A stretch of 32,000 nt of DNA. It comes from Candidatus Heimdallarchaeota archaeon. GTDB lineage: Archaea > Asgardarchaeota > Heimdallarchaeia > JABLTI01. The DNA is taken from contig JAUWKS010000007.1 in NCBI GenBank assembly GCA_030614005.1, positions 30,001 through 62,000 of the forward strand, read 5' to 3'. The notes under the pieces were generated by a model, which saw nothing but the letters and a program-made list of their open reading frames with translations, had not been told where the DNA came from and made no database searches. Of the stretch, positions 28,623 to 30,948 are shown piece by piece (position 1 is the stretch's first letter; every line of letters starts with the position of its first letter). The translations under genes were made by a program, and so were the position numbers.

Positions 28623-29885
28623 TTGTACAAAGTGATAGATATTGGCTTAGAAGCGCTTTTAATAATGGATAAAGCCGGCATACCTTTACTATTTCAAAAA
28701 CTAGATCCAAAACGAACAGATATCGAACCTATTTTACTATCTGGTTTTCTAACTGCTGTAAAGGCTTTTTCTATTGAGATAATCGATGATACTATTACAG
28801 ATTTCCATGTTGATTATGGGAAAAGATTAATTACAATCCTCTCAGGACACAAGATTGTTTTCGCAGCAATACACAGTCATAAATCAACTGAGAGAATAAT
28901 CCCTGTTTTAGCACCTTTATTGAAAGAATTTGAAAGCCAATACTATAAAGAAAACCATATCGGTGAATCAGGTCCATTAGAAAAGTATGAACCATTTAGA
29001 GAACGAATAGCTACTGTAATGGGTATTAACAATCCTTCGTTAGATTGGATCCCATTCTACACTGAAATTGATGAAGCAAAAGTAACTGATGATAGTAAAA
29101 TAAAGAATTTCATTGATAATCACTATTCTATTAAGGATATTGTAAACCACTGTAATCTCTCTGAATCAGAAGTATTAAATGAAATATCTAAGTTGTGGGC
29201 TATAGGTGCAATACGATTCCGGAATATTTTAACTCAAAGAGATATTGTCATTTCAACAAGTAAAATTGCAAGCTATTTGCAACCTTCAACAATTGAATGG
29301 AAAGAACTCTATAAGGAATTTCCAAACCTAATAAATATGATTCCCCATATTTTGAATCATCTGGATGGACAAACAACAGTAGGACACATTATAGATGATT
29401 TAGATACAGAAGGAATTGAGAATGTTTATTGGCTTATGGATTATTTATACATCAATGATGCTCTATCTATGCTTTCACCCGAAAAAAGAAGAATTCTAAT
29501 GGCTAAAGAAATTTTACAAAAAAGCTTAGAAATTGCTGCTGATATTTATTCTGTCGAGGAAACCATTTGGCACCTTAAATCTGTGTTAAATGAGATACGT
29601 TCTCCAGAAATAATTTCACAGATAAGACTACTGAAGGAGAACTGGTCCATTGACTATAGTTTTTTGGTATACGAAGGTTTGAGTCCCGAGAAAGTCTTAC
29701 AATTGTATGATATTTGGTTAGAAATTCTTAGAATGTTTATCTTTTCATTGGATGAGAAGAAAAGAAAAAAATATATCGAGTACCTAACTGAAATGCTTGA
29801 TTTTGATTTCTTCGAAAAATATCGAAGTGAAGACATGGATGGTTTCGAAGAGTTTGCCTTTTGGTTGGAATTAATATTTATTTGA
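28623..29885 (+). CDS. Longin-domain protein with tandem winged-helix domains (NPRL2-like architecture); start TTG 28623 or GTG 28632
   Basis: Longin ALLIMDKAGIPL...LLSGFLTAVKAFS; wHTH1 FIDNHYSIKDI..SESEVLNEISKLWAIGAI; wHTH2 HLDGQTTVGHII..VYWLMDYL; helical C-terminus. Confidence 0.72.
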   Translation: MYKVIDIGLEALLIMDKAGIPLLFQKLDPKRTDIEPILLSGFLTAVKAFSIEIIDDTITDFHVDYGKRLITILSGHKIVFAAIHSHKSTERIIPVLAPLLKEFESQYYKENHIGESGPLEKYEPFRERIATVMGINNPSLDWIPFYTEIDEAKVTDDSKIKNFIDNHYSIKDIVNHCNLSESEVLNEISKLWAIGAIRFRNILTQRDIVISTSKIASYLQPSTIEWKELYKEFPNLINMIPHILNHLDGQTTVGHIIDDLDTEGIENVYWLMDYLYINDALSMLSPEKRRILMAKEILQKSLEIAADIYSVEETIWHLKSVLNEIRSPEIISQIRLLKENWSIDYSFLVYEGLSPEKVLQLYDIWLEILRMFIFSLDEKKRKKYIEYLTEMLDFDFFEKYRSEDMDGFEEFAFWLELIFI

Positions 29886-29899
29886 ATGGAGGAAAAAAA

Positions 29900-30631
29900 A
29901 TGAAAATTGATCCAGAAAAAGCAATCGAGGTAAAACCAGGCATATGGTGGATTGGTTGGCCCGATTATCAAGCAGGGTTTTCTAATAATCCTTATTTGAT
30001 AAAAGATGGAGAAGAAATTGTTATCATTGATCCAGGTTCAAGACTAGATGCTCATTGGAGTATAGTGAAAAGGAAAATTGAATCAATTGTTCCACTTGAA
30101 AAAATAACTATGGTAATAGCAACTCACCAAGATCCTGATTTGTGTGCTTGTATACCATTCATTGAAGATGCCGTTGGTGTAGATAATTTTGAATTAGTTA
30201 CTACAGATAGGACTTCGCTTTTTATGCCCTATTATGACATAAAATCTGAAGTGACTGTTGTTGAAGATGGAGATAAAATGGAAATTGGGGACAGCGGAAG
30301 AATTTTAGAATTCATTACAAGTCCATATCTACACTTTCCAGGTGCAATGGTTGTTTATGAAACTTTAGAGAAAATTCTCTTCTCTTCAGATATTTTTGGA
30401 GCATTTTCAGTTGATTGGAATTTATATGCCAACGAATACTATCATGAAGCCATAAAATCTTTTGCAGAAACTTACATGTCTGATAAACGACACATAATTA
30501 ATTTTCTGGATAAAATAAAGAATATCGATATTGAATTGATTTGTCCTCAACATGGTTCACTTATTAAAAAAGAGCTAATCCCTAAAATAATTGGTGTCAT
30601 GAGAAACTTGGAGGTTGGAATATGGAAATAA
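29900..30631 (+). CDS. Stand-alone metallo-beta-lactamase-fold di-iron protein, ODP (oxygen-binding di-iron protein) type; start ATG 29900
   Basis: NNPYL, IDPG, THQDPD, PYLHFPGA, LFSSDIFG, ICPQHG; 243 aa with no flavodoxin domain. GGAGG at 29888-29892. Confidence 0.8.
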   Translation: MKIDPEKAIEVKPGIWWIGWPDYQAGFSNNPYLIKDGEEIVIIDPGSRLDAHWSIVKRKIESIVPLEKITMVIATHQDPDLCACIPFIEDAVGVDNFELVTTDRTSLFMPYYDIKSEVTVVEDGDKMEIGDSGRILEFITSPYLHFPGAMVVYETLEKILFSSDIFGAFSVDWNLYANEYYHEAIKSFAETYMSDKRHIINFLDKIKNIDIELICPQHGSLIKKELIPKIIGVMRNLEVGIWK

Positions 30632-30948
30632 ATCATCAACAGGCTGCAGAGTTCGCTCAATTGTTAATCATGAGGGGTTTGGGTTTATATGGAGATAAAA
30701 AAATGGCTAAAATCTGCGATGATTCCGGGATGGATTGTAGAGTAGGTAGTTCATACGAACTTCCCGATAATGAAAATATCGAAGATTCTTTAAAGAAATT
30801 GATGATTAATTACTCAAAATTTAACTTACCTGCGAAAATGACTGTACTAGTTCTAGCTAAAAAGTATGGTATGTTAATACCCGAAGAGCTGAAATCTTCT
30901 AAGAAAAAGAAATCAAAGTATAGGCAGAAATTAGAATTTAAGTCCTGA
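30622..30948 (+). CDS. Small hypothetical protein with a polybasic tail, translationally coupled to the ODP gene
   Basis: GGAGGT at 30610-30615; ATG 30622 overlaps the ODP stop by 10 nt; 108 aa, mostly helical. Confidence 0.75.
   Translation: MEINHQQAAEFAQLLIMRGLGLYGDKKMAKICDDSGMDCRVGSSYELPDNENIEDSLKKLMINYSKFNLPAKMTVLVLAKKYGMLIPEELKSSKKKKSKYRQKLEFKS

Follow-up and report, generated by a model that had tools for sequence, protein, structure and literature searches.

A putative oxygen and iron sensor unit encoded with an NPRL2-like longin protein in Asgard archaea

Layout of the locus

Here we analyse three neighbouring genes in a 32,000-nucleotide stretch of DNA (the window) from an Asgard archaeon whose closest relatives in the database carry the label Candidatus Heimdallarchaeota. 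The window has a G+C content of 33.6% and is part of contig C34 of a 3.6-Mb metagenome-assembled genome (MAG). The three open reading frames (ORFs) encode an NPRL2-like protein (ORF1), a stand-alone di-iron sensor protein of the ODP type with a metallo-beta-lactamase (MBL) fold (ORF2) and a small protein that probably couples the two (ORF3). An earlier reading of the DNA sequence, which we call the original prediction, had proposed that the three genes form one operon and that the ODP feeds an oxygen or iron signal through a longin protein into a small-GTPase switch.

All three genes lie on the forward strand, as originally described. ORF1 spans positions 28623–29885 (420 aa) and ends with the stop codon TGA at 29883–29885, which leaves a 14-nt gap to the ATG of ORF2 at 29900. 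ORF2 (29900–30631, 243 aa) ends with TAA at 30629–30631 and overlaps by 10 nt with ORF3 (30622–30948, 108 aa), whose ATG starts at 30622. A ribosome-binding site, GGAGG, is located at 29888–29892 on the same strand, 7 nt ahead of the ORF2 start, and a second one, GGAGGT (30610–30615), lies within the 3' end of ORF2, 6 nt ahead of the start of ORF3. For ORF1, the true start is more likely the GTG at 28632, which would result in a protein of 417 aa, because a GGAG (28619–28622) precedes it by 9 nt and the gene predicted in the database (P0001) also has 417 aa.

Reading the sequence of the trio revealed no run of T between the three genes. Past the stop codon of ORF3, by 22 nt, runs of seven and four T occupy positions 30970–30983 of the forward strand (the T7 run being 30970–30976) and constitute a candidate archaeal oligo-T terminator; a scan for bacterial-type hairpin terminators found none. 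The candidate terminator overlaps the end of a convergent 90-aa ORF on the reverse strand (30976–31248), which matches no Pfam family and shows only weak conservation in the sister genome (L007), so that it may not be a real gene. The datasets listed for the window and for the ODP and ORF3 genes are DNA of marine-sediment and cold-seep metagenomes, and no RNA dataset is listed among them.

The three encoded proteins

ORF2 matches the Pfam family ODP (PF19583) over profile positions 2–194 of 194 with 171.7 bits, at a cut-off of 27.2. Its best solved relative is also an ODP (6qrq, 253 aa), which aligns end to end with ORF2 residues 16–241 (E 2e-24). The motifs HQDPD (76–80), LH (H145), SxDI (D164) and PQHG (H218) are identical in 6qrq, and HQDPD, H145, D164 and H218 are invariant across 18 orthologs; by comparison with the site in flavodiiron proteins (FDPs) and ODPs, these residues are the presumed iron ligands. 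The original prediction had allowed that the protein might group with hydrolases or with fragments of the flavodiiron enzyme FprA. This is not what we observed: ORF2 has no flavodoxin domain, and flavodiiron enzymes align to it by their MBL half only. The FDP of Thermotoga maritima comes close in score to the second solved ODP. A separate FprA-like gene of 400 aa is present elsewhere in the same genome. When comparing ORF2 to its bacterial relatives at 40–47% identity, we find ODP domains that are fused to adenylate or guanylate cyclase, GGDEF plus REC, HisKA-HATPase, SpoIIE-TPR and PAS-GGDEF domains; further relatives are encoded within a che cluster or next to hybrid kinases. Since these relatives carry signalling output domains, the clade of ORF2 appears to act as a sensor input, a role in which ODPs have been published (PMC7319448, PMC6978683). 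By analogy with the family, there is thus good support for the inference that ORF2 senses Fe(II) or O2.

A Pfam scan assigned ORF1 to no family and gave weak sub-threshold matches to helix-turn-helix (HTH) families, and single-sequence searches of ORF1 and ORF3 against the PDB returned nothing usable. The AlphaFold2 model of ORF1, based on 47 homologs, has a predicted local distance difference test score (pLDDT) of 83 and a predicted template-modelling score (pTM) of 0.74. It comprises an N-terminal longin domain, at least two winged-helix-like modules and a conserved helical C-terminus that ends in GFEEFxFWLE. The longin domain (residues ~6–138, window positions 28638–29036) has the topology beta-beta-alpha-beta-beta-beta-alpha. 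With VIA-align, residues 6–138 match the longins of Sec22b, VAMP7, adaptin sigma and mu, Fuzzy and TRAPP subunits at Z 12–13, with a root-mean-square deviation of ~3 Å and ~120 residues aligned.

The best fold matches of ORF1 as a whole are NPRL2 proteins. Using Foldseek, the top matches in the PDB are the NPRL2 chains of GATOR1/SEACIT (E 5e-6) and, among the SwissProt entries of the AlphaFold database, the fission yeast and human NPRL2 proteins rank first (E 4e-7), followed by NPRL3. Residues 9–284 of ORF1 are paired with residues 7–326 of NPRL2 over ~345 columns with a probability of 1.0; the template-modelling (TM) scores of 0.26–0.30 are low because the domain orientations differ. A profile of the ORF1 family, searched with hmmsearch against 177,635 PDB sequences, reached human NPRL2 (E 2.4e-5). 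Here, positions 80–231, which correspond to the end of the longin, the linker and the first winged helix (28860–29315 in the window), align with residues 119–267 of NPRL2. The second match is yeast Npr2 (E 0.013), and nothing else of note was found among the solved sequences. In addition, one homolog of ORF1 has a sub-threshold match to HTH_NPRL3. The proposal that ORF1 is a GATOR1-like protein with longin and winged-helix parts is thus borne out by both fold and profile.

An Asgard NPRL2-like family has been published (Liu et al. 2020, bioRxiv 10.1101/2020.10.19.343400, Fig. 5c) and was counted in Ca. Lokiarchaeum ossiferum (PMC9834061); ORF1 very probably belongs to it. The text of that preprint describes NPRL2-like longins that are fused to two-component domains, whereas its text and legends do not report an ODP neighbour, an ORF3 partner or fusion, or a Rab-like GTPase neighbour.

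The third protein, ORF3, has no relative in Pfam or the PDB (best Foldseek E 2.4; best VIA-align Z 6.0, which is below the noise of helical proteins). Resemblances to H-NOX, pyrin and V4R had weak scores and we do not trust them. A feature search of the ESM atlas with ORF3 returned unnamed clusters only, and an exhaustive profile search retrieved 48 clusters among 1.84 billion representatives. The AlphaFold2 model (pLDDT 81) contains a core of ~90 aa, with four helices and a small hairpin, which is followed by a polybasic tail, KSSKKKKSKYRQK, with a net charge of +8. Residues R18 and G24 are invariant in the family. We observed that the tail (30892–30945 in the window) varies with the genomic context. 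In Asgard copies linked to an ODP it is polybasic and aromatic, KKKRKSRFRRLF-like, in copies linked to a GTPase it is acidic and hydrophobic (D.L.SL.DF), and bacterial copies lack it.

Gene neighbourhood across archaea and bacteria

To assess the conservation of the trio, we surveyed 399 Asgard genomes and detected ODP orthologs (E<1e-40) in 26 of them. An ORF3 gene directly follows the ODP gene in 25 of the 26, usually overlapping with it. In 22 of these 25 genomes a gene of the ORF1 family is adjacent to the pair, and the other three loci are cut by contig ends. The trio is thus adjacent in all 22 genomes whose contigs can be checked, spread over six or more family-level groups and arranged in one of two orders, ORF1-ODP-ORF3 or ODP-ORF3-ORF1; for this reason, the arrangement is far beyond what chance would explain. 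The possibility that the trio is not syntenic in related genomes, which had been set as a test, is decisively rejected, and the gene layout together with the conserved adjacency supports the predicted operon as an operon-like unit. Within the genus of the window, ORF1 and ODP are present together in the same 4 of 11 genomes. Carriers of the trio include the cultured Ca. Lokiarchaeum ossiferum Loki-B35 as well as Ca. Harpocratesius repetitus, Ca. Heimdallarchaeum aukensis and Ca. Heimdallarchaeum endolithica.

ODP and ORF3 also form a pair outside the Asgard archaea; loci that bear ORF3 were searched for through an alignment of the ODP. In bacteria, almost all stand-alone ODPs of this clade have an ORF3 homolog after them, as in Scalindua, Aminicenantes, Nitrospinota, Bacillota, Atribacteria, Nitrospirae and a spirochaete. 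Hybrid histidine kinases or a PAS-SpoIIE-TPR protein are frequently encoded alongside. Of the ODPs that lack an ORF3 neighbour, most are fused straight to an output domain. For instance, one locus (L166) encodes ODP, ORF3 and a PAS-SpoIIE-TPR protein as separate genes, and another (L170) encodes a single ODP::SpoIIE-TPR protein. In MAGs of Aminicenantes (L140, L143 and L144), the pair is flanked by the genes for glycyl-tRNA synthetase beta and pyruvate kinase and has no signalling gene in its vicinity, so that ODP and ORF3 at times occur without an adjacent output gene.

Several gene fusions link ORF3 to the other two proteins and to bacterial outputs. ORF1::ORF3 fusions are found at 16 loci, where the ORF3 hidden Markov model (HMM) matches the C-terminus with E-values of 1e-22 to 1e-28. 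On an Odin-labelled contig, an ORF3::longin fusion (P0202; ORF1 HMM positions 4–134, E 4e-11) is encoded directly after the ODP, and the basic stretch of ORF3 serves there as the interdomain linker. In a che cluster, beside an ODP, ORF3 is fused to the CheB methylesterase in the place of the receiver domain; this fusion also occurs in Scalindua. Finally, one protein (P0240) is an ODP::ORF3 fusion, and in the ESM atlas ORF3 resembles the C-terminal part of 369-aa ODP proteins (TM 0.65). These findings give good support to the inference that ORF3 is an ODP-coupling domain and, in Asgard archaea, a detachable C-terminal domain of ORF1. ORF3 would then be the key coupling element, and ODP plus ORF3 a portable two-gene module that is also present in bacteria; both points, like the published NPRL2-like family, are absent from the original prediction.

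The loci that contain ORF1 fall into three types. Type A, ORF1-ODP-ORF3, occurs in the window's genus and several other families. Types B and C occur in a Thor-like family (f31) and contain no ODP: type B has the order ORF1-ORF3-GTPase, and type C encodes an ORF1::ORF3 fusion of 505–585 aa that is followed by a GTPase gene. A gene for a Ras-family GTPase is located at most 1.4 kb downstream in 31 of the 33 loci of types B and C. This GTPase is Ras/Rab-like (Pfam Ras, 157–163 bits; Gtr1_RagA, 20.5 bits, which is below the cut-off). ODP and GTPase are mutually exclusive neighbours of single ORF1-ORF3 units. In one Thor-labelled MAG, both kinds of module are found co-oriented on the same contig (L086, positions 4998–11516; same region in L127), in the order ODP-ORF3-ORF1, a TrpB-like gene, ORF1 (interrupted by an assembly gap of N), ORF3 and a Ras-like GTPase.

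We inferred a maximum likelihood tree of 51 ORF1 proteins, which contains several long branches and was midpoint-rooted for drawing only. The GTPase-linked proteins of types B and C form one group within f31 (support 90/100). With the midpoint root, this group is nested among the ODP-linked forms, which span the families f1, f3, f4, f19 and f31.

Upstream of the trio in the window, and divergent from it, lie two tandem genes for 4Fe-4S dicluster proteins on the reverse strand (26313–27401 and 27433–28434), with weak similarity to reductive dehalogenases and QueG, and a gene for a HEAT-repeat protein (25580–26299, reverse strand). These genes are syntenic with the trio within the genus only (L006–L009), and we thus rejected them as members of the unit. 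About 25 kb from the trio, the window also contains eukaryote-like GTPase and cytoskeleton genes: an ORF of 184 aa (1775–2329, reverse strand) whose match to the Arf family (Pfam Arf, 35.9 bits) is confined to the C-terminal half of the profile (positions 79–174), and, near it, a gene for an actin-like protein (3365–4465, reverse strand; ALP_N and MreB-like_C). An ORF of 520 aa at 165–1727 has no family assigned. Two translational GTPases are encoded in the window, an EF-Tu/eEF1A-like protein with an eEF1A C-domain (9579–10916, forward strand) and aIF2-gamma (13747–15156, reverse strand), the latter adjoining a PIN-domain gene (13291–13731); all three look like ordinary housekeeping genes.

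Proposed mechanism and alternatives

Taken as a whole, the trio is best explained as a two-part sensor of O2 or Fe(II), formed by ODP and ORF3, that acts on an NPRL2-like scaffold; we put the probability of this reading at roughly 60%. The coupling of sensor, adaptor and scaffold, taken by itself, we consider quite likely. In the proposed mechanism, the ODP would bind Fe(II) and O2 at its di-iron site, as is established for the family, and ORF3, presumably made in step with the ODP through the overlapping start, would carry the state of the ODP to an output protein. In bacteria the candidate outputs are histidine kinases and PP2C phosphatases encoded beside ODP and ORF3, or CheB, whose receiver domain is replaced by ORF3. 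For the Asgard archaea, ORF1 would be the output, with ORF3 acting as its detachable C-terminal domain, so that the O2 or iron status most likely alters the activity or the partner binding of the NPRL2-like scaffold. A complex prediction for ORF1 and ORF3 with the ODP as partner, using alignments of 18 rows, gave a score of 0.00; this is no verdict and counts neither way.

The proposed unit resembles the ODPs that serve cognate soluble chemoreceptors in Treponema denticola (TDE2498/TDE2496) and Thermotoga maritima (Muok et al. 2019, summarised in PMC7666581, PMC6978683 and PMC7319448). ODPs are known to have been co-opted for diverse signalling outputs, both bacterial and archaeal. Both systems have in common a stand-alone di-iron MBL protein of ~250 aa with the HQDPD/H/D/QHG motif, a location of its gene next to a signalling protein and an auxiliary role as a sensor. 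However, the output here is a eukaryote-like protein of the NPRL2 type instead of a methyl-accepting chemotaxis protein, a kinase or a cyclase, and a separate coupling protein of ~100 aa stands between sensor and output.

By analogy with other longin platforms and with the sister clade, the scaffold may act in turn on a small GTPase that is encoded elsewhere in the genome. NPRL2, NPRL3 and DEPDC5 make up GATOR1/SEACIT, the GTPase-activating protein (GAP) for RagA/Gtr1, and the catalytic arginine finger of human NPRL2 is Arg78 of the longin domain. ORF1 shares with NPRL2 the N-terminal longin and the collinear linker and winged-helix modules, and NPRL2 accounts for its best fold matches and for its only significant profile matches. 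ORF1 differs from NPRL2 in its extra helical C-terminus of ~135 aa and in the presence of ORF3. Furthermore, the GTPase of the sister clade is Ras/Rab-like (157 bits for Pfam Ras) and not Rag, and the input here is a sensor of O2 or iron, whereas GATOR1 receives its input from amino-acid sensors.

GAP-type longins carry a GP motif ahead of strand beta2 (PMC12290439). At the corresponding turn between beta1 and beta2, the ORF1 family has a near-invariant G19-I/L-P21, that is, G-x-P rather than GP, which reads G-I-P in ORF1 itself. Asgard longins of the FLCN/SMCR8 type have both the GP motif and an arginine finger, and it has been proposed that they share ancestry, and perhaps GAP activity, with the longin GAP complexes of eukaryotes (Traffic 2025, PMC12290439). 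ORF1 differs from these by its G-I-P, by having no demonstrated finger and by its NPRL2-type tail. A further comparison is the MglB/Roadblock platform of MglA, a small alpha/beta platform that, like ORF1 of the sister clade, is encoded next to a Ras-like GTPase and to which the fold scores are similar (Z ~11). In contrast to MglB, ORF1 has a longin topology, is a multidomain protein of 420 aa and is paired in the window with a di-iron sensor and not with a GTPase.

Several observations weigh against the GTPase step. None of the ODP-type operons contains a GTPase gene. The window genome has 23 Ras-like matches, among which the best match to the GTPase of the sister clade (44% identical) is not a reciprocal best match, so no ortholog was found. 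A search of the genome with ORF1 as query yielded one ORF1-family gene only and no NPRL3-like paralog (DEPDC5 was not sought). R68, the sole strongly conserved arginine of the ORF1 longin, lies in the motif DYGxR at the turn between beta3 and beta4; it is present in 32 of the 33 GTPase-linked ORF1 proteins vs 7 of the 18 ODP-linked ones, although the protein of the window has kept it. In NPRL2, Arg78 lies in the loop between beta4 and beta5 and thus not in the turn of R68, and no equivalent of the arginine finger was identified in ORF1. A profile of the longin alone did not reach NPRL2 among the PDB sequences, so that the position of the finger could not be aligned, and we dropped R68 as a candidate for it. 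The analogy lends weak support to the regulation of a small GTPase by the NPRL2-like scaffold of this organism, and we regard a GTPase client here as tentative and somewhat doubtful. Of the originally predicted route from the ODP through a longin protein to a GTPase switch, the coupled unit of ODP, ORF3 and ORF1 is supported, whereas its GTPase end is not shown.

Some of these observations also speak for the serious rival, which we judge unlikely: the ODP itself would be the switch that is read by the scaffold of ORF1 and ORF3, with no GTPase involved in this genome. The majority of Asgard lineages would then use the ODP, with its metal or O2 state, as the partner of the scaffold, derived paralogs of the Thor-like family would use a Ras/Rab-like GTPase, with its nucleotide state, and the output would pass through other partners of the winged-helix and C-terminal parts of ORF1. 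This alternative would account for the mutual exclusion of ODP and GTPase beside ORF1 and ORF3, for the nested position of the well-supported GTPase-linked group, for the missing ortholog of the operon GTPase and for the many ODP-linked proteins that dispense with R68. It is also consistent with residue G21 of ORF3, which is invariant in ODP-linked copies of archaea and bacteria and replaced by T in GTPase-linked copies. However, the two partners do not occupy the same slot, as the ODP gene precedes ORF3 and the GTPase gene follows it, and the root of the tree is merely the midpoint. Furthermore, longins are typically platforms for GTPases, and with dozens of small GTPases per Asgard genome any of these, including the 23 matched here, could be the client. 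The wider proposal, in which ODP and Ras/Rab-like GTPase are interchangeable two-state inputs on one scaffold of NPRL2-like protein and ORF3, with the ODP-linked form being older and more widespread in Asgard archaea, is more speculative still.

An O2- or iron-responsive transcription regulator, in which the winged helices of ORF1 or the polybasic tail of ORF3 bind DNA under control of the ODP, appears improbable. Such a role might be expected from the winged-helix-like modules and weak HTH matches of ORF1, from the charge of the ORF3 tail, from the frequent ending of prokaryotic sensor modules in transcription factors and from the divergent orientation of the trio relative to the Fe-S protein genes in this genus. 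Nevertheless, ORF1 is acidic along its whole length (isoelectric point 4.9; net charges of –3 and –9 in the winged-helix regions), unlike DNA-binding winged helices, which weakens this explanation, and the winged helices of NPRL2 that it matches are protein-protein modules. Moreover, the Fe-S genes are conserved upstream within the genus only, and the basic tail is absent from bacterial and GTPase-linked ORF3 proteins and merely links two domains in the Odin fusion.

A non-signalling unit, with the ODP as a small di-iron enzyme that scavenges O2, nitric oxide or peroxide and ORF1 and ORF3 as factors for its assembly, protection or localisation, would fit the flavodiiron MBL lineage of the ODP, with the T. 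maritima FDP scoring near the second solved ODP, and the use of O2 defence in a host of anoxic marine sediment and cold seeps, but it is very improbable, as the unit lacks a flavodoxin and any other redox-partner domain or gene, CheB can carry ORF3 instead of its receiver domain, the genome has a separate FprA-like gene and the closest ODP relatives are fused to classical signalling outputs, which weakens a purely enzymatic role.

Some parts of the proposed sensor unit were already known, namely the ODP as a modular sensor and the Asgard NPRL2-like family. In the literature that we searched, which covered neither Muok et al. 2019 (PNAS) nor Liu et al. 2021 (Nature), we found no description of an ODP paired with an NPRL2-like longin protein, in agreement with the original prediction, and none of the split, fused or inserted arrangements or of the exchange of ODP for GTPase in paralogs of the Thor-like family. 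The ORF3 coupling family was not described there either, although a mention in the original article of Muok et al. is possible. A 2025 preprint on oxygen adaptation in Asgard archaea mentions none of these genes.

Our analysis provides an NPRL2-like protein with a likely input that is defined, conserved and amenable to biochemistry, namely a di-iron sensor of O2 or Fe(II), and with a defined coupling domain. The cultured Lokiarchaeum ossiferum and two closed Heimdallarchaeum genomes carry the unit, so that binding, dependence on metal or O2, and transcription can be tested directly. The sister operon of the Thor-like family, which encodes an NPRL2-like protein, ORF3 and a Rab-like GTPase, is well suited to testing whether NPRL2-like longins of archaea act as GAPs or as guanine nucleotide exchange factors. 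Beyond the Asgard archaea, ORF3 represents an unnamed domain that partners stand-alone ODPs across bacteria, which bears on the route by which ODP signals reach kinases, phosphatases and CheB. If ODP and GTPase were interchangeable inputs and the ODP-linked form the older one, the archaeal relatives of the GATOR1 core would have begun as the output arm of an oxygen or iron sensor and would later have been rewired to a nucleotide switch. The unit would connect oxygen sensing with eukaryote-like signalling components in a way that can be tested.

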